From Candidatus Omnitrophota bacterium (GTDB lineage: Bacteria; Ratteibacteria; UBA8468; MWAK01), in the NCBI GenBank assembly GCA_043797665.1, contig JAZDPL010000074.1, forward strand, positions 1-24,885: a stretch of DNA of 24,885 bases, written 5' to 3'. Positions 5,898 through 24,373 of this stretch are shown in pieces. Under the pieces are notes generated by a model, which saw nothing but the letters and a program-made list of their open reading frames with translations, had not been told where the DNA came from and ran no database searches. How positions within the stretch are numbered: position 1 is the stretch's first letter; every line of letters starts with the position of its first letter. Both the position numbers and the translations under genes were made by a program.

Positions 5898-7403
5898 TTA
5901 CGATAGGGTAAATTCGCTGCGCAGGTAGGTGATTCCAAAGTAGCAGAGGCTGCCGGAGGCAAAGGCGGAAAGTAGCGCCCAGAGAGAACCAGAACAGGGT
6001 TCAAGTGCCTGAAAATAGATAAAGGCAACCAGCGTTGCCAGACCGGAAAGGATTACAAATTCCACGCCGCTGCGGAGTAAATGTCTGCCTCCCAATAAGC
6101 CAACCTTCCGGCGCAAGAAAAAGAAGAGCAGAGTGAAATTGCACAGTCCCACCAGAGAAGTAGCCAGAGCGATGCCGCCCTGTTTCATCGGTACCATAAG
6201 GATAAGGTCTAAAACCAGGTTTAGACCGATACTCAGGACACCGATTTTGACCGGGGTTCTGGTATCTTTCAGGGCGTAAAAAGCACGAGTCAATACAATT
6301 CCGCCGCTGTAAGCAAAGAGGCCAAGGGAGTAAAAAAGGAGCGCGGTACCGGTTGCCCGGGTGGAAAGGCTGGTAAAAAGTCCGTGTTGAAAAAGAATTC
6401 TGATAATCGGTTCCCGGAAGAATATCAGGCCAAAACTGGCCGGGATAACCAACAGGAAAGTTAATTTCAAGGAAAATGCAAGTGTTTTTTTCATCTCTGC
6501 CCAGTTTTTACCTACCGCTAAGCGGGAAAGGGAAGGAAGGGCAATCGTACCCATGGTGACACCAAAGACACCGATGGGTAACTGCATCAGACGGGTGGCA
6601 TACCAGAGGGAACTGACCATGCCGGGTGCAATGGTGCTGGCTAAAAAGAAATCCACCAGAATATTGATTGGCGCTACCGCCACACCGATAGTGACCGGAA
6701 GGAGTAACTTTCCCATTTTAATGAGCGCCGGGTTTTTGAAATTGAAACCCGGTTTCAGGGAGAAGCCGCGACGCCGGAGAGCCGGTAGCGGAATGAGGAA
6801 TTGGAATATTCCGCCGATTAGGAGACCGATAATGAGACCATAAGTTCGTCCGACCGGACCGGTTCCGATGAGAGGGGTAATAAATACCAGGCTGGCGATC
6901 CAGAACAGGTCAAGTCCAAGAGGTGCCAGGGCCGGACTGGCAAAATGTCCCACGGAATTGAGTATACCCATTACCAGTGCGGATAGAGAGACGAAGACTA
7001 AGTAAAAGATGGTAAAACGGAGGAAAGAAAGAGTGAGAATGGCTTTCTGACTCAAGGGGAAAAAGATGGCGATACTGGAAACAAACAAGAATAGGACTGA
7101 AAGCGATAGGGTTAGAAAGAGGCTGATACCCATTGTATCGTTGATTACTTTTTGCGCCTCTTCTTTCTTTTCCGGCGCAAGGTAATCGGCAAAAACCGGA
7201 ATGAAGGCACTGTTCAGACCACCCTCCGCCAATATTCCCCGGAAGAAATTGGGAATCATAAAGGCGAGGAGAAAGGCGTCGTAGACTAAGGTGGTACCAA
7301 AAAAATAGGCGCTGACCATTTCCCGAAAAAGGCCAGCCAGGCGGACTATTACCGTGGCGATACCCACCACCCCGGCTGCCTGGACGATTCGTTTTTTATC
7401 CAC
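5898..7403 (-). CDS. murJ: Lipid II flippase MurJ (MviN)
   Basis: R..G..RE...A..FG, DAF..AF.IPNFFR..LAEG, RLMQLP.G, RAFYA.KDT.TP; probable GTG start at 7403. Confidence 0.93.
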   Translation of the reverse strand: MDKKRIVQAAGVVGIATVIVRLAGLFREMVSAYFFGTTLVYDAFLLAFMIPNFFRGILAEGGLNSAFIPVFADYLAPEKKEEAQKVINDTMGISLFLTLSLSVLFLFVSSIAIFFPLSQKAILTLSFLRFTIFYLVFVSLSALVMGILNSVGHFASPALAPLGLDLFWIASLVFITPLIGTGPVGRTYGLIIGLLIGGIFQFLIPLPALRRRGFSLKPGFNFKNPALIKMGKLLLPVTIGVAVAPINILVDFFLASTIAPGMVSSLWYATRLMQLPIGVFGVTMGTIALPSLSRLAVGKNWAEMKKTLAFSLKLTFLLVIPASFGLIFFREPIIRILFQHGLFTSLSTRATGTALLFYSLGLFAYSGGIVLTRAFYALKDTRTPVKIGVLSIGLNLVLDLILMVPMKQGGIALATSLVGLCNFTLLFFFLRRKVGLLGGRHLLRSGVEFVILSGLATLVAFIYFQALEPCSGSLWALLSAFASGSLCYFGITYLRSEFTLS

Positions 7404-7517
7404 CCCTTTATTATACTTTTTCCCTTGGTAAGTCTGCAATCACCAGAGCCACCGGTGAAGGACACATCAAATTGGGTAAGGTAGGGGACTGTCCCCCGCG
7501 GCGACTTGGAATCTTTT

Positions 7518-7588
7518 TGGGAGGTCGCCTAACGGTAGGACTTCAGACTCTGGATCTGAGTATGGTGGTTCGAATCCACTTGTCCCAG
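7518..7588 (+). tRNA. tRNA-Gln(CTG) with an imperfect 3' acceptor strand; probable integration site
   Basis: Anticodon arm TCAGA-CTCTGGA-TCTGA, T arm GGTGG-TTCGAAT-CCACT; acceptor TGGGAGG/TGTCCCA has one G-G mismatch and one G-T pair. Confidence 0.9.
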
Positions 7589-7738
7589 CTATCAGAGTTG
7601 GACAAACAGTATCAATAATCCCTTTTTTGCCTTACCCTGCTTGCGTCGAAGAATTCTTGGAAGGTTTTCAACACTAGCAATGATTGACTCAGTTTTCGGA
7701 GAAAGGTAAAGAACAACTATTATTTGAGGTGACCACGG

Positions 7739-8839
7739 TTATTGATTTTCCGCAAATATCCGGGCAAACTCTTGGGCTGATTTTCTGAAGACTTCCATTA
7801 CAACCGGGGCAAAATGTCCGGGCCTGGTCCTCTGGTCACCCTCAATAATAATCCGGTAAGCCGTCTCGTGGTCAAAGCCGGGTTTATACGGTCGTTTACT
7901 TCTTAAGGCGTCATACACATCTGTGATATTTACGATGCGTCCTTCCATAGGAATGGCTTCTTCTTTCAATCCCGACGGATACCCGGAGCCGTCCCATTTT
8001 TCGTGGTGGGTAAGAGCAATTATCTCCGCAGCTTTCAGATATTCTGAAGAGGACCCTTTAAGGATGCTTGCGCCAATTTTAGCGTGGGTCTTCATAATCT
8101 CGAATTCTTCCGGCGTGAGGGAAGCCGGTTTTAGCAGGATATTGTCCGGTATGCCAACCTTGCCCAGGTCATGCATGGGGCTTCCGTGGAATATCACTTC
8201 CACTTTTTCCGGAGCAAGTCCTAATTCCCTTGCCAGGAACTGAGAGTAATGGCCGATCCTTCTAATGTGGGAACCGGTCTCTTCGTCCCGGTACTCGGCG
8301 GTTACGGTCAGGCGATAGATAGTTTCAATATAGCCGGCTTTTATCTTCTGGTTTGCGCCATCAAGTTCGTGCAGAGATTTACGCAGTTCTTCGGTTCGCA
8401 TCTGTACTTTTTCTTCCAGACCCTTCTGATACTCCCTGTTTTCCAGGACTAACCGACGTTTCTCCAGAACATTCCTTACCGCATGTTGAACTTCATCAAT
8501 ATTGAGCGGCTTCAACACGTACCGGTCTGCACCCTGGTTGAGGGAGGAGACGGCATCACCCAGGTCATCGCTGGCAGTAATAATAATGAAACCGGTATCA
8601 GGCAGGCATTTTTTCGCCTTTTCCAGAAATTCCAAACCGCTTTCCCCAGGCATGTGAATATCGGTTATCACCAGGGACGGTTTTGCTCTCTGGAGAGTTT
8701 CAAAACCTTCCTCGGCATTGCTTGCCTCCTCCACATCGTTGTAACCCAGGTGTTTCAGCGAATGGCTCAAGAAACGCCTTGCTACTTCCTCGTCATCTAT
8801 TATTAATATTTTTTCGTGCTGTTTTTTTTCATTAGTCAT
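7739..8839 (-). CDS. REC + HD-GYP cyclic-dinucleotide phosphodiesterase (RpfG family)
   Basis: N-terminal receiver; ETGSHI.R, MHDLGKVG, HHEKWDGSGYP, DVYDAL...RPYK. Confidence 0.93.
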   Translation of the reverse strand: MTNEKKQHEKILIIDDEEVARRFLSHSLKHLGYNDVEEASNAEEGFETLQRAKPSLVITDIHMPGESGLEFLEKAKKCLPDTGFIIITASDDLGDAVSSLNQGADRYVLKPLNIDEVQHAVRNVLEKRRLVLENREYQKGLEEKVQMRTEELRKSLHELDGANQKIKAGYIETIYRLTVTAEYRDEETGSHIRRIGHYSQFLARELGLAPEKVEVIFHGSPMHDLGKVGIPDNILLKPASLTPEEFEIMKTHAKIGASILKGSSSEYLKAAEIIALTHHEKWDGSGYPSGLKEEAIPMEGRIVNITDVYDALRSKRPYKPGFDHETAYRIIIEGDQRTRPGHFAPVVMEVFRKSAQEFARIFAENQ

Positions 8840-8845
8840 TTATTA

Positions 8846-9859
8846 CTACTCCCATCCTTTTATTTCGCCTATTTCAAAAAAGACCGATTTGGAGTCGGTA
8901 TTGGATACTTTAAAATCTCTTGTTTCCCCTGGAGCCAAATCAGGAATATAATCTACACCGGTGGTTGTCACATGTTCATCGGCATCATAAAACCGAATTG
9001 TAACCGGAACCTTAACATATCTTTTCTTGGAAATATTTTTGATCTTGCCGGCTACATATTGGCCAACAACTTCAAACCGGGATGTGATATCCGGATTAGT
9101 TATAACCTTGTCTCCCGTGGTTATTTCTAAAAAACTAAATTCACCGGTAGAATTCGTGGTGGGGTTACTTTTTTTCGAGGTTCTGGTATGGTATAGATAA
9201 CTACCAACGATGCCAACGATTAAAATCAGAAATAAAGAAACAATTATTGCTCCAAATATTGCATTTTTTCTGCTTTGTGGTTTTTCTTCTTTATCTCCCT
9301 GCCTTTCCCCCTGTTTTTGCAGAAGAGATTCAATAGCTTTATAACAATCCGTACAGATTCCCTGTCTCCGATACTTTCTGTCTAATCTTCTACCGCACTT
9401 CTGGCAGTAATATGTTCCTCCAAATTGCATCCGTAATTTGACTACTAAAGCAGAAAAAGGCCAGGTCTTACGTTGGAACTTATCCGTTCCGAGAAGCATC
9501 CGGATTCCGGACAGGACGGTCTCGAGTTCAAACGGTTTGGTTACGTAGTAATCAGCTCCGAACCCGTAACCTTTCAGCAGATCTTCGTCCTGTGATTTGG
9601 AGGTAAGCATGATTACCGGTAGATTTCGTGTCCGGGGGGTAGCCCTGAGATATTGTAGGACTTGAATACCATCCAGTTTGGGCATCATGATATCCAGAAT
9701 TACCAAGTCCGGTTTTTCGGTATCAATTTTTTTTAAAGCTTCCTGGCCGTCAACCGCCAGAAAAACAGTATGGCCTTCTGCGGTTAATCCTTTTTCCAGT
9801 ATAGTCTGTACTACAAGGTCATCATCAGCTACTACAATTTTAAGGCGTATTTCGGACAT
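8846..9859 (-). CDS. Receiver domain fused to a zinc ribbon, TM helix and FxLYD-like C-terminal domain
   Basis: REC (DD, LDIMMP, TKPF); CQKC...CTDC; hydrophobic AIFGAIIVSLFLILIVGIVG; G.IKN...V.IRFYD...DLAPGET..F. Confidence 0.8.
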   Translation of the reverse strand: MSEIRLKIVVADDDLVVQTILEKGLTAEGHTVFLAVDGQEALKKIDTEKPDLVILDIMMPKLDGIQVLQYLRATPRTRNLPVIMLTSKSQDEDLLKGYGFGADYYVTKPFELETVLSGIRMLLGTDKFQRKTWPFSALVVKLRMQFGGTYYCQKCGRRLDRKYRRQGICTDCYKAIESLLQKQGERQGDKEEKPQSRKNAIFGAIIVSLFLILIVGIVGSYLYHTRTSKKSNPTTNSTGEFSFLEITTGDKVITNPDITSRFEVVGQYVAGKIKNISKKRYVKVPVTIRFYDADEHVTTTGVDYIPDLAPGETRDFKVSNTDSKSVFFEIGEIKGWE

Positions 9860-9862
9860 AAA

Positions 9863-10294
9863 TTAAATTGTATATTTCTCAGGCTGGTTTTTACTCGGGC
9901 CAAAGAGCGTCTGGATTGCAAACAGAACACTGCTTATTTTGAACGGTTTAGTGATGTAATAGTTCGCTCCGAATTCGTAACCGTTTAATAAGTCTTTATC
10001 CTCTGATTTGGAGGTAAGTATGATTACCGGCAGGTTTCTTGTCTGAGGTGTGGCTTTGATGGATTGAAGAACCAGAATGCCGTCTCTTTTGGGCATCATA
10101 ATGTCCAGAATTGCCAAATCCGGTTTTTCATCCGAGATTTTTTTAAACGCCTCTTCTCCGTCACCGGCCAGGAAAACGGTGTGGCCTTCTGCGGTTAACC
10201 CTTTTTCCAGGATGGTCCGTACTACAGGGTCATCATCGGCGACTACGACTTTAAGGCGTATTCCGGATACGGGTTGGTTTTTACGGAACCACAT
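9863..10294 (-). CDS. Single-domain response regulator
   Basis: DDD, LDIMMP, LTSK, ITKPF; close paralog of the adjacent REC. Confidence 0.9.
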   Translation of the reverse strand: MWFRKNQPVSGIRLKVVVADDDPVVRTILEKGLTAEGHTVFLAGDGEEAFKKISDEKPDLAILDIMMPKRDGILVLQSIKATPQTRNLPVIILTSKSEDKDLLNGYEFGANYYITKPFKISSVLFAIQTLFGPSKNQPEKYTI

Positions 10295-13472: not shown

Positions 13473-13500
13473 AAACTAATTGTAACTGGATGGTGGGGTA
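13473..13500 (+). repeat. 28-bp cargo-boundary repeat, copy 1
   Basis: AAACTAATTGTAACTGGATGGTGGGGTA, 26/28 identical to 21498-21525. Confidence 0.8.
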
Positions 13501-13585
13501 GGGGAAGGTAACAAGGGAAGGGGGGGAAGCCTGTTTCCAATTCGAATCTGTCCAACTCTCCCTCCCCGCCAAAAAAAAGAGGGAA

Positions 13586-13765
13586 ACCCAAGTCTATGGC
13601 TCAAGTTCGGGCTATTTAGCCCCTAAAACCCGGTTCGAACCCAACTCTCCTTTTTAACCTGACTGAAAAAACGTGGAAACCTAAGCTGGTAGGCTCAATT
13701 TGGAGATATAAACGTACTTATTTAGTCTCTGGAATCCGGTTCGGATAGCGTCCAATCCTCCCAGC
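13586..13765 (+). repeat. Module-end/att repeat, copy 1 (180 bp)
   Basis: Aligns end to end with 22824-23003 and with 23961-24094; ends GTCCAATCCTCCCAGC. Confidence 0.92.
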
Positions 13766-13965
13766 ATTGATGGAATCAGTGCCTTTTCAGCCAGTATCTG
13801 GAAGGCTGGATGATAGACAGGGCTTAGGTTTTCGTCTTTCAGGTAAAGGTTCGAAAATACTAATACTAATTTGAGTAATTGCCTCTTTTCCTCGCCAGAC
13901 CGGGAAAGGTAAATGTCCTTAGCTTGGATAGTGTACCTCATCATTGGGGAATTATAATTGTCGCA
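13681..13965 (-). pseudogene. C-terminal remnant of a probable large serine recombinase, reading into the repeat
   Basis: AKDIY....EEKRQLLKLV(LV)FSNLYL....L...Y.PAFQIL resembles recombinase-family C-termini; continues in frame as LGGLDAIRT...; 6-bp internal duplication; no catalytic domain. Confidence 0.6.
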
Positions 13966-21497: not shown

Positions 21498-21525
21498 AAA
21501 CTAATTGCGACTGGATGGTGGGGTA
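21498..21525 (+). repeat. 28-bp cargo-boundary repeat, copy 2
   Basis: AAACTAATTGCGACTGGATGGTGGGGTA. Confidence 0.8.
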
Positions 21526-21537
21526 AATAGGAATTAT

Positions 21538-21862
21538 GGGGGTATCCACTTGACTCCCGTACCACAAGATGTGGTATATATAGGTAAATACTCAGTGAAC
21601 ACCGTCTGATGGTAGTGTAGGGCCTTGTGCCCGTAAAGATTACGCCCATAAAGAGCTACACTACCTCTATACATTACGGTGTTTACCGAATATTTACATA
21701 TATAGGGAATGGAAGAGCTTCGCGATCCCGCGGGAAACTTTTCTATCGTCTTGTCCAACAAGCCGTAGCAATTGACGCTTTGAGGGGCCGAGATATCAGA
21801 GGTTAACATTTCTATGCATAAACCACTATATGTAGGGGTACGTGAGTCAAGTGGATACCCCC
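21538..21862 (+). mobile_element. Internally deleted IS1595-family (ISSod11-like) element / MITE
   Basis: TIRs GGGGGTATCCACTTGACTC(C/A)CGTACC (25/26); ATTAT on both flanks; 21711-21806 encodes RASRSRGKLFYRLVQQAVAID..., an IS1595-type transposase C-terminus. Confidence 0.8.
21584..21697. mobile_element. 114-bp MITE nested in the IS1595 remnant
   Basis: TIRs GTAAATACTCAGTGAACACCGT / GTAAATATTCGGTAAACACCGT; exact 8-bp TSD ATATATAG at 21576-21583 and 21698-21705. Confidence 0.85.
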
Positions 21863-21987
21863 ATTATAAGAATATCTACCTGGTATGGTATCTAAAGATT
21901 GGGCTGGAATTGCAGAAAGTCCTTGATTTTCAATAGCATCTGTTGAGGGCATGGGATGGTTTCAAGCCACTTAAAAGTTCCAAAGTC

Positions 21988-22004
21988 ATCCACCTCTCCC
22001 AGCT
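21988..22004 (+). repeat. tRNA-Gln 3'-end copy (att-like)
   Basis: ATCCACCTCTCCCAGCT versus tRNA 7574-7590 ATCCACTTGTCCCAGCT, 15/17. Confidence 0.7.
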
Positions 22005-22366: not shown

Positions 22367-22765
22367 ATGAAAAAAATTCTTGATGCGCACGGTCTTATGG
22401 TATTTCTTGAAAAAGAGGCCGGTTTTGACAAAGTTGAATCTTTTTTTGTTACCGCCGTAGAAAAAGATAATTATTTGTTGATGACCACGGTGAACTTTGG
22501 TGAGGTTTACTACATTGTTTTGCGCGAATGCGGACAAGATAAAGCACACGAAATTGAGAAGATAATCAGAACTCTCCCCATAGAAATAATTGATGTGAAT
22601 TTGGAACTCGCCCGGGAAGCCGGTCGTTTCAAAGCCACCAGGAAAATTTCCTACGCTGACTGTTTTGCTGCTGCTTTAACAAAACTTTACAAAGGAGAGT
22701 TGGTAACCGGGGATAAAGAATTTAAGGTGTTGGAAGATGAGATAAAAATTTCGTGGCTAATATAA
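22367..22765 (+). CDS. vapC: PIN-domain toxin
   Basis: ILDA, N.GEVYY, SYADCFAAA and LVTGD.EF acidic PIN residues; start at ATG 22367. Confidence 0.9.
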   Translation: MKKILDAHGLMVFLEKEAGFDKVESFFVTAVEKDNYLLMTTVNFGEVYYIVLRECGQDKAHEIEKIIRTLPIEIIDVNLELAREAGRFKATRKISYADCFAAALTKLYKGELVTGDKEFKVLEDEIKISWLI

Positions 22766-22823: not shown

Positions 22824-23003
22824 ACCCAAGCCTGTGGCTCAAGTTCGGGCTATTTTGCCCCTAAACCCTGGTTCGAATCCAACTCTCCCTCTTACCTGAC
22901 CGGAAAAACGGCGGAAACCTAAGCTGGCAGGCTCAATTTGGGGATATAAATGTACTTATTCAATCTCCGGAAGACGGTTCGGATAGCGTCCAATCCTCCC
23001 AGC
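22824..23003 (+). repeat. Module-end/att repeat, copy 2 (180 bp)
   Basis: Aligns with 13586-13765; internal TGGTTCGAATCCAACTCTCCC; ends GTCCAATCCTCCCAGC. Confidence 0.92.
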
Positions 23004-23100
23004 TGCAAAGGTCATAAATTAAAAAAGAACCCCCGGTTTATCTATTCGTTACTGAAAACGCACAAGGAATTGCTCCGGGGTACACCATCCTGATATAACA

Positions 23101-23724
23101 CTACTTTAGATTATCCGCTGCGAAACTCCAATTGATCAATTTTTCGAGAACAGCGTTGAGGTAATCCGCGCGTCGGTTCTGATAGTCCAAATAGTAGGCA
23201 TGTTCCCACACGTCGATGGTCAATATCGGCTTCATCCCCTTGGTCAAAGGCACATCGGCATTACTGGTCTTGACCACCTTGAGCTTGCCACCATCCAGCA
23301 CAAGCCACGCCCAGCCGCTGCCGAACTGACTCATTGCTGTAGCCGCCAACTCCTTCCTGCATATGTCTAAGGTTCCAAAGGAAGCCTCAATCTTTATTTT
23401 TAATACTGCAGGTGGTTCACCACCGCCCTTCGGAGTCAAACTGTTCCAGTAAAATGCGTGGTTCCACGCTTGCGCGGCATTATTGAAAATCGCAGTCTTA
23501 TCCACTTTACCGGATGTTGCGGTTATGATTTTTTCCAACGGCAAGGGCGCAAACTCAGTTCCTGCTATCAGCTTATTCAGGTTATCGACATATGTTTTGT
23601 GATGCTTGTCATAATGGAAAGAAATCGTATTTGCGGTTATTACTGGGTCCAGCGCGTTATTTGCGTAGGGCAGTGATGGTAGAACATGCGGAACGGCACT
23701 TTCAATCTTGTCATCGCTCATCAT
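23101..23724 (-). CDS. sodB: Superoxide dismutase, probably Fe-type
   Basis: [34 protein letters not shown]. Confidence 0.93.
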
Positions 23725-23823
23725 TTTTCCTCCAATGTGGTGAAATAAAAGCCGCTAACGCTATTTTTTAGCGGCACACCGCTTGCGGCCTATTTGCTGC
23801 AAGGGCTTATTGGAAAACCGACT

Positions 23824-23961
23824 TCAGGTCTTAAGGAATGCCAGCAGGTCGGCGTTGAGCTGGTCTTTGTGCGTGTCCGCAAGGCCGTGAGGTGCGCCCG
23901 CGTAGATCTTTAGGGTCGTGTTCCTGACCAGTTTCGCTGAACGGAGAGCCGCGGCACCGAT
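23824..23961 (-). pseudogene. C-terminal 45 aa of a non-heme haloperoxidase-like alpha/beta hydrolase
   Basis: [45 protein letters not shown]; cut where repeat copy 3 begins. Confidence 0.8.
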
Positions 23962-24094
23962 TCGAATCCACCTTTTCCTCATCAACCTGACCGGAAAAAC
24001 AGCGGAAACCTAAGCTGGCAGGCTCATCTTGGGGATATAGACGTACTTATTCAGTCCTTGGAAGGCGGTTCGGATAACGTCCAATCCTCCCAGC
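23961..24094 (+). repeat. Module-end/att repeat, copy 3 (134 bp, 5'-truncated at TTCGAATCCACC)
   Basis: Aligns with the 3' part of copies 1 and 2; ends GTCCAATCCTCCCAGC. Confidence 0.9.
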
Positions 24095-24106: not shown

Positions 24107-24373
24107 TTAAGGGAAAAATCGATAAATATCTTTTCGGTGGAGACACCGGACGAAGAGAATAACGTTATCCTGCTGAACAATTCCTAACCGATAATCACCC
24201 ACTCTAAGGCGAAAATGGTCTTTTACGCTTTGAATTTTCACTACACCCGAAATTTCTTTTAAGGAATGGGATTGTTCAATTTGGGCAATCAAATACTCTA
24301 TTCTTTTTCTGATGCTTTTTTCGGTTATCTTTTTAATATCCTTTGCAAAAGAGCCGGTGAACTCAATCTGCAT
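24107..24373 (-). CDS. RelE/ParE-family toxin
   Basis: IEFT.SF.KDIKK, FRLRVGDYRLG, HRKDIYR.FP. Confidence 0.9.
   Translation of the reverse strand: MQIEFTGSFAKDIKKITEKSIRKRIEYLIAQIEQSHSLKEISGVVKIQSVKDHFRLRVGDYRLGIVQQDNVILFVRCLHRKDIYRFFP

Follow-up and report, generated by a model that had tools for sequence, protein, structure and literature searches.

Inner tRNA-Gln look-alikes in the recombinase-less cassette ends of a large serine recombinase family

Cassette ends and their inner tRNA-end motifs

The window, a stretch of 24,885 nucleotides that corresponds to contig C44 of a Candidatus Omnitrophota genome (G000), contains three copies of a 180-bp repeat together with the genes and remnants collected in Table 1. 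These repeats form the right-hand ends of cassettes that have no recombinase and belong to a large serine recombinase (LSR) family whose target is tRNA-Gln(CTG). Copy 1 lies in an island behind a spare copy of the tRNA gene, and copies 2 and 3 lie between carA and hisF with no tRNA gene. The repeat is modular, its parts following one another as D box, D arm, core, unit A, core, unit B and terminal core; in other copies D is joined directly to B (contigs C90 and C61, and genome G001) or directly to A (C61 and C90). The cassette at 23004-24094 has AGC-ending cores on both sides and no recombinase, as in a CIME, where att ends are kept and integration genes are absent.

Several other features were recorded in these surroundings. 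A second, altered tRNA-Gln(CTG) stands beside murJ in both genomes of the genus, together with a piece of the gene that lies before the true copy (window 7433-7589; locus L036 of G001), and in G000 this second copy served as an integration site. Within the cargo, a response-regulator gene is duplicated at a spacing of 411 bp (9466-9856 and 9877-10267). The D box is also found at 21498-21525 and forms same-strand runs on C52, C61 and C90, with promoter-like sequence to its left and many different element ends to its right; it gave 0 matches in a shuffled genome, and the pattern occurs in 5 of 65 genomes of the phylum, all from one family. Between D box and E arm lies a 325-bp MITE (21538-21862) with GGGGG termini, whose 5-bp target duplication, ATTAT, is seen at 21533-21537 and 21863-21867. 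An IS with a 12-bp duplication closes the contig (24652-24885, plus the start of the C90 minus strand); the cassette array continues on C90 to hisF, and an IS-free allele is present in G001 and in contigs of runs X2-X4.

Table 1. Coordinates of the features in the window, and of short units at other loci
Feature	Position	Strand	Remarks
Second, altered tRNA-Gln(CTG), with a piece of the gene preceding the true C75 copy	7518..7589	+	left end of the 7.5-13.8 kb island
Recombinase gene-end remnant	7590..7646	-	83% to L044 arm
D box (28-bp motif)	13473..13500	+	53 genome copies; adjoins cargo promoters
D arm	13501..13540	+	usual left partner of A/B units (6/10 inner cores)
D-A core	13541..13562	+	recombinase-arm spacing (6 nt); without AGC
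Unit A (89 bp)	13563..13651	+	shortened, diverged paralog of B; right arm equals B arm minus 5-nt spacer
Inner mimic, copy 1 (A-B joint)	13632..13651	+	17/21; then TTT
Unit B, copy 1	13652..13765	+	minus strand encodes attP-form recombinase tail; terminal core 13740-13765, ends in AGC
C-terminal LSR fragment without catalytic domain	13766..13926	-	65% to P0001 and P0002; in frame with B tail
E-type cassette end (different recombinase arm)	21868..22003	+	core with 7-nt spacing, ends in AGC
PIN-domain (VapC-like) gene	22367..22765	+	cargo of cassette ending at copy 2
Unit A remnant, copy 2	22824..22868	+	cut 48 nt upstream of TTCG
Inner mimic, copy 2 (A-B joint)	22869..22889	+	TTCG + 2 nt + 12-mer, then TCT in place of AGC
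Unit B, copy 2	22890..23003	+	terminal core 22978-23003
Fe/Mn superoxide dismutase gene	23101..23724	-	cargo of cassette ending at copy 3
Non-haem chloroperoxidase-type hydrolase, C-terminal fragment (~46 codons)	23824..23960	-	
Inner mimic, copy 3	23961..23978	+	17/21; fused to hydrolase fragment; then TCA
Unit B, copy 3	23979..24094	+	terminal core 24069-24094
ParE/RelE-family gene	24107..24373	-	cargo of next cassette; in G001 after E-type core instead of B
Cargo-less units of 96-112 bp (double-hairpin left end + attP-type core)	L114:4653-5410, 7104-7450; L115; L116:4850-5079; L051:6149-6258; L055; L142		behind tRNA-Ser/tRNA-Gln

The first-pass annotation had described a motif resembling a tRNA 3' end inside each of the three repeats, plus a degenerate fourth version, and all four are present at the positions it gave. 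The 21-nt tRNA end that it had reconstructed belongs to a real gene of the genome, the intact tRNA-Gln(CTG) on contig C75, whose 3' end it forms. Identity to this 21-mer is 17/21 in copy 1, 20/21 in copy 2 (the value reported earlier, confirmed by count) and 17/21 in copy 3; the window's own, altered tRNA-Gln matches it at 19/21. At up to 3 mismatches we found 2 matches in the window versus 0 in 100 shuffles, and at up to 4 mismatches 6 in the genome versus 0 in one shuffled genome. The resemblance of the inner motifs to the tRNA end is not due to chance. In all three window copies TTCG is followed by 2 nt and the 12-mer, as in the tRNA, which is the attB-type spacing of the distal (ZD) motif. 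The degenerate motif (13541-13564) has the 6-nt spacing of a recombinase arm instead, so that its presence held up and its tRNA-type geometry did not. The inter-core segment, put earlier at ~125 bp, measures 111, 111 and 113 bp from 12-mer to 12-mer in copies 1-3 (106, 106 and 108 bp from TTCG to TTCG). A tRNA gene or structured RNA at the repeats was rejected as ARAGORN and Rfam gave no match there; folding z-scores ranged from -0.5 to 1.3 over both strands of the three copies, and inspection by eye of 46 ARAGORN calls gave no other cognate tRNA for the inner core.

Terminal cores, the recombinase family and its crossover

In the LI integrase system, the distal motif is described as moved by 5 bp between attP and attB (PMC3783163). 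All 14 terminal cores from G000, G001 and the metagenome locus L044 read TTC(G/C)-7 nt-TCCA, compared to TTCG-2 nt-TCCA in the tRNA, and so have the motif 5 bp outward relative to the target. Since the difference between the 7-nt and 2-nt spacings equals the attP/attB shift of that system, the terminal core is the element-side (attP-type) arm of an LSR attachment site. The same assignment follows from three natural junctions: the natural LSR piece P0001 ends in the B tail, P0002 ends in a tail read through the tRNA-Gln antisense, and in a contig from run X1 position 7589, at the tRNA end, is joined to position 13782 in the recombinase fragment. On contig C75 the tRNA is followed by a convergent LSR of 550 aa whose frame exits through the tRNA antisense; this gene, the X1 joint and the tails of P0001, P0002 and P0151 place the family at tRNA-Gln. 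The attP arm encodes the last ~27 codons of the recombinase gene. Among 164 family proteins, 40 had tRNA-read-through tails and 30 had attP-type tails, as counted with a loose regular expression that admits some false matches, and no D- or A-type tail was found among the 164 except for one 4-letter LGAK match.

The terminal cores share their sequence up to AGC and diverge beyond it. AGC follows the 12-mer in 13 of 14 terminal cores (AG in 14/14) and in none of the 10 inner cores, all of which continue with T and eight with TC. The ParE cassette follows B in the window and an E-type arm in G001, and the swap is located at that core. Dyad symmetry peaks at the G-C step in three of the five recombinase-arm junctions (strongest in L044, 11 of 17), and prefers other centres in copy 1 and G006. 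We consider the crossover likely to fall at G-C of ...CCCAGC, while the family's own junctions bracket it only to CTCCCAGC; with a cut inside CCC instead, the recombinase itself could have made the inner joints. In Thermoanaerobaculia, where the Gln core of locus L051 is identical to the window core at 25 of 26 positions, G-C occupies the inferred crossover positions in 24/26 unit-bearing tRNA ends versus 11/21 others, a count biased by the tRNA-Ser query. For Bxb1, a mismatch in the central dinucleotide is described as blocking recombination (PMC5062993). With AGC in 0/10, the inner mimics would lack a central dinucleotide that fits the partner attP, assuming the GC crossover.

Origin of the inner half-site and alternative readings

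We regard it as probable that a duplication in the cassette ends of a tRNA-targeting LSR system of known kind left the mimic as a dead half-site at its joint. The LSR family integrates at the tRNA-Gln(CTG) 3' end, probably with the cut at G-C of ...CCCAGC, and its attP arm is the tRNA end with TTCG moved 5 bp outward. The ancestral cassette end would have consisted of D box, D arm, inner half-site, B and terminal core, and this arrangement, with an inner half-site that has no crossover bases, is seen in G000, G001 and one metagenome contig. A second unit, A, would have been stacked before B by recombination or slippage between the 12-mers of the inner and terminal cores. A aligns with B over its full length (interior scores 27.5-39.5, versus a shuffled mean of about -14 and maximum of 7), and because the two units begin with the same AGC-less sequence, their joint is most simply derived from the shared 12-mers and not from recombinase. 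The right arm of A is the attP arm of B with a 5-nt gap at the spacer; loss of this spacer would make an attP arm revert to a tRNA look-alike. The mimic would then be a frozen joint that may still bind recombinase and presumably cannot complete an exchange with the family attP, and the start of copy 3 would be a short-homology deletion joint. Across the 10 inner cores the spacing is 7 nt in two, 6 nt in five and 2 nt in three, the last being the window mimics; the short left arm of L044 may be an A-type allele of intermediate spacing (6-7 nt). In contigs of runs X2 and X3, 13575 is joined to 22824, which points to related strains with an A of full length that resembles copy 2. Against a dead joint stand the better preservation of the inner motifs than of their flanks across the family, and the small target that a deletion restoring exact tRNA spacing presents (a few percent, by rough estimate).

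Conservation gives a different answer at the two scales. The first-pass annotation had staked its reading on the inner motif being better conserved than the flanking sequence, and among the three window copies no such excess was seen: identity is 44/54 in the inner motif, 75/92 in the linker, 150/177 in the tail and 76/78 in the terminal core, that is, 81.5% in the inner motif versus 81.5-84.7% in its flanks and 97% in the terminal core. When all 10 inner cores are compared, identity in the 12-mer reaches 87% (92% in the six joints of D to a unit) versus 69-72% for the flanks, and TTCGAA is exact in nine, figures inflated by the relatedness of the copies and by the partial use of the motif in finding them; this suggests constraint on the inner motifs. 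Such constraint would be expected if recombinase bound the half-site, ~110 bp inward of the cassette end, as an accessory or decoy site that tunes excision or blocks re-integration while remaining uncut, a proposal that we judge unlikely. An internal tRNA-like locus described in a Dehalococcoides LSR island (PMC3146451) is in keeping with it, and so are E-type ends, four of nine of which have an inverted 12-mer-like match 100 bp from the core (G000 C90:14775-14786; G001 C20, C46). That match, however, coincides with the last codons of the E tail and may merely encode its final residues (STPP). An accessory role is also opposed by the window copies, by a spacing that drifts among 2, 6 and 7 nt, and by Bxb1, which is described as working without regulatory sites (PMC5062993).

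Two uses of the mimic had been proposed earlier, and neither fared well. As a built-in secondary attB, the mimic would receive incoming elements and the D-B joints would be the products. The attB geometry does hold on its left half, D-B joints have the same right half behind an attP-type left arm, and the crossover position is inferred. Yet the crossover bases are absent in 10/10 inner cores, and no A end stands before another arm in G000 or the loci examined; A ends are followed only by B (only two A ends, both in the window, are available in sequence), and D-B cassettes start at other cores and never at an A end. Since D-A joints exist too, the joint of D to a unit looks ancestral, and we find use as an attB very improbable. 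The other proposal, excision of B between its two cores with a switch of the recombinase tail, deserves hardly any credence. Read in the recombinase frame, the A end does give a different short tail, tail exchange at attachment sites is real in the LSR family (the same loosely matched 40 and 30 of 164), and units of similar size are tandemly duplicated elsewhere. A tail switch would nevertheless be without a substrate, as copy 1 is adjoined only by a C-terminal recombinase fragment without a catalytic domain, and copies 2 and 3 are adjoined by no recombinase. The left joint of B also has no crossover bases, and the terminal joint of copy 1 is attP-like rather than attR. No joint deleting B was found among those listed (15 of 140 and 12 of 16) from four groundwater runs, whose contigs drop rare variants. 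What survives of the proposal is the segment as a unit, given that modules are present or absent exactly between cores (D-A-B in the window versus D-B on C90, C61 and in G001).

Breakpoints did not cluster at TTCGAA as had been predicted. Only 1 of 6 truncations of A/B units (all six read by eye), that of copy 3, falls at the inner motif; the remainder comprise one 2 nt before a terminal TTCG (G001), three in mid-unit and one made by an IS. Counting both TTCG sites together gives 2/6, for which P=0.23 if the prior is 15%. The motif is indeed where copy 3 starts, next to the truncated hydrolase, but the exact cut described there could be placed only within 23961-23967, because native codons of the hydrolase may themselves supply TT.GAA. 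A Nostoc homologue has GTA CCA ATC GGT GCC at this position, and our search gave no close hydrolase relative that fixes the break, which may have used short homology with the hydrolase codons.

The exact tRNA spacing might instead have been copied from a tRNA-Gln end, either the spare gene or a displaced 3' fragment, with no deletion involved. Such donors with tRNA spacing occur in both G000 and G001, at locus L049 a tRNA 3' fragment stands directly before a unit left end, and the tRNA shares TGG with copy 2 and TCCACC with copy 3. Upstream of TTCG, however, the A arm aligns to the attP arm of B and not to the tRNA, copy 2 retains the element-type A at 12-mer position 5, and displaced fragments retain AGC or GGC, which the mimics do not. 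We therefore hold copying to be improbable. Reading the mimic as the by-product of a dead joint has a wider meaning: an attP arm of a tRNA-targeting LSR is only five bases from looking like the tRNA, so an internal tRNA end is not necessarily a landing pad. With their 7-, 6- and 2-nt spacings, the naturally occurring arms also lend themselves to testing the attP/attB spacing rule in a recombinase family that is uncharacterised.

Short att-only units and comparison with known systems

A GTDB scan for attP-type Gln cores returned 23 stretches, of which four repeat G001 loci and one overlaps another. Ten of the 18 independent matches were dropped, being judged by eye as chance matches in reading frames, and eight were credible. 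Three of the eight (L051, L055, L048) have a second core 96-112 bp upstream with 7-nt spacing and AGC kept; L055 has two units that differ at 2 bases, and L048 is degenerate (by eye). In G066, tRNA-Ser genes are followed directly by tandem stacks of short units, in one case 7.4 copies of 108 bp, and the cores of the stacked units resemble the host tRNA end. The left end of these Thermoanaerobaculia units matched 37 of 201 genomes of the class, a tally that includes the unpublished G243 and G247, mostly behind tRNAs and also elsewhere, and has no Rfam match. By a strict script, a core follows this left end in only 3/26 tRNA-adjacent cases. An LSR domain was found in 1 of 5 such genomes. Homology of B to the units was not detected (pairwise z at most 3.1). 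Short inter-core units are a recurring architecture, as the first-pass annotation had guessed. At L049, a displaced tRNA-Gln 3' fragment with AGC kept (reversed position 8443) lies ~5 kb downstream of the tRNA and is followed by a unit left end.

Both joints are intact in the Thermoanaerobaculia units, which come from a different phylum, and the left joint of B is not. Judging from their sequences, the Thermoanaerobaculia units may be either mobile or deletion remnants that were later amplified. A bolder idea, which we offer tentatively and rate as more doubtful than not, is that cargo-less att-only units of ~90-113 bp are minimal mobile DNA, moved in trans by tRNA-targeting serine recombinases and tandemly amplified at tRNA 3' ends; the Thermoanaerobaculia stacks would be live, and A and B would belong, as frozen members, to a separate family in which the recombinase still binds the inner half-site. 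If mobile, such units would rank with the smallest site-specific mobile elements, and they would account for the cargo-less joints gained by tRNA-linked cassette arrays. Beyond these loci, the terminal core and the D box each had 0 matches in viral contigs. A metagenome scan for B gave 2 matches, of which L045 was dropped as it repeats G001 sequence, and among relatives B matched 3 of 61 genomes, with a match that went further than the tRNA end in G001 alone. Another 20 matches to the 12-mer in genomes of the family yielded two tRNA genes and one E-type core, and no new inner core.

The comparisons that follow draw on part of each published account. There is a likeness in several respects to the ssrA islands of Dehalococcoides, integrated by the serine recombinase DsiB, in which the LSR gene overlaps attL and its stop depends on the neighbour (McMurdie et al. 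2011, PMC3146451). As described there, those islands too stand in tandem at the 3' end of an RNA gene, show the overlap of LSR gene and att site and include many islands without an integration module; they have TTCAG-N-KCCA with 7-nt spacing before the direct repeat, and an internal tRNA-like locus. In contrast, the cores here match tRNA-Gln(CTG) and not ssrA, the mimic, a half-site of 21 bp, lies ~110 bp from the end where theirs is a 76-bp tRNA 4.4 kb inside, and one array here sits between carA and hisF, away from any tRNA. None of the six-gene module of the ssrA islands was seen beside the repeats (C75 from ORF lists only). Phage serine integrases share the 5-bp shift of the distal motif and the need for a matching central dinucleotide (LI/A118, PMC3783163; Bxb1, PMC5062993); as described, these have single sites with the enzyme alongside, whereas the arms here are stacked and overlap the recombinase gene end, with an inner arm that has no crossover bases. 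Decayed elements that keep their att ends and pile up in tandem are described for CIMEs and for ICE-IME accretion (PMC5704250). Unlike the CIMEs of that account, units here go down to 89-113 bp without cargo, and the A-B joint seemingly arose by 12-mer homology, not by recombinase. In tycheposons, partial tRNA copies in islands likewise record older integrations (bioRxiv 10.1101/2020.12.28.424599); there the enzymes are mostly tyrosine recombinases and the copies true tRNA fragments, whereas the mimic here would derive from an attP arm. In the literature searched, which left most subscription papers, supplements and figures outside, we found no description of an inner half-site or of att-only units of such kind.

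Displaced pieces of tRNA ends are also found at other places in the genus. Further tRNA-Gln 3' fragments with tRNA spacing lie away from the gene in G000 (C15:219-244) and in G001 (L007, L005), one of them ~370 bp behind tRNA-Leu(CAA). In G000, the tRNA-Leu(CAA) at C7:570-653 has a 3' acceptor strand that is unpaired with its 5' end and resembles a tRNA-Ser end.
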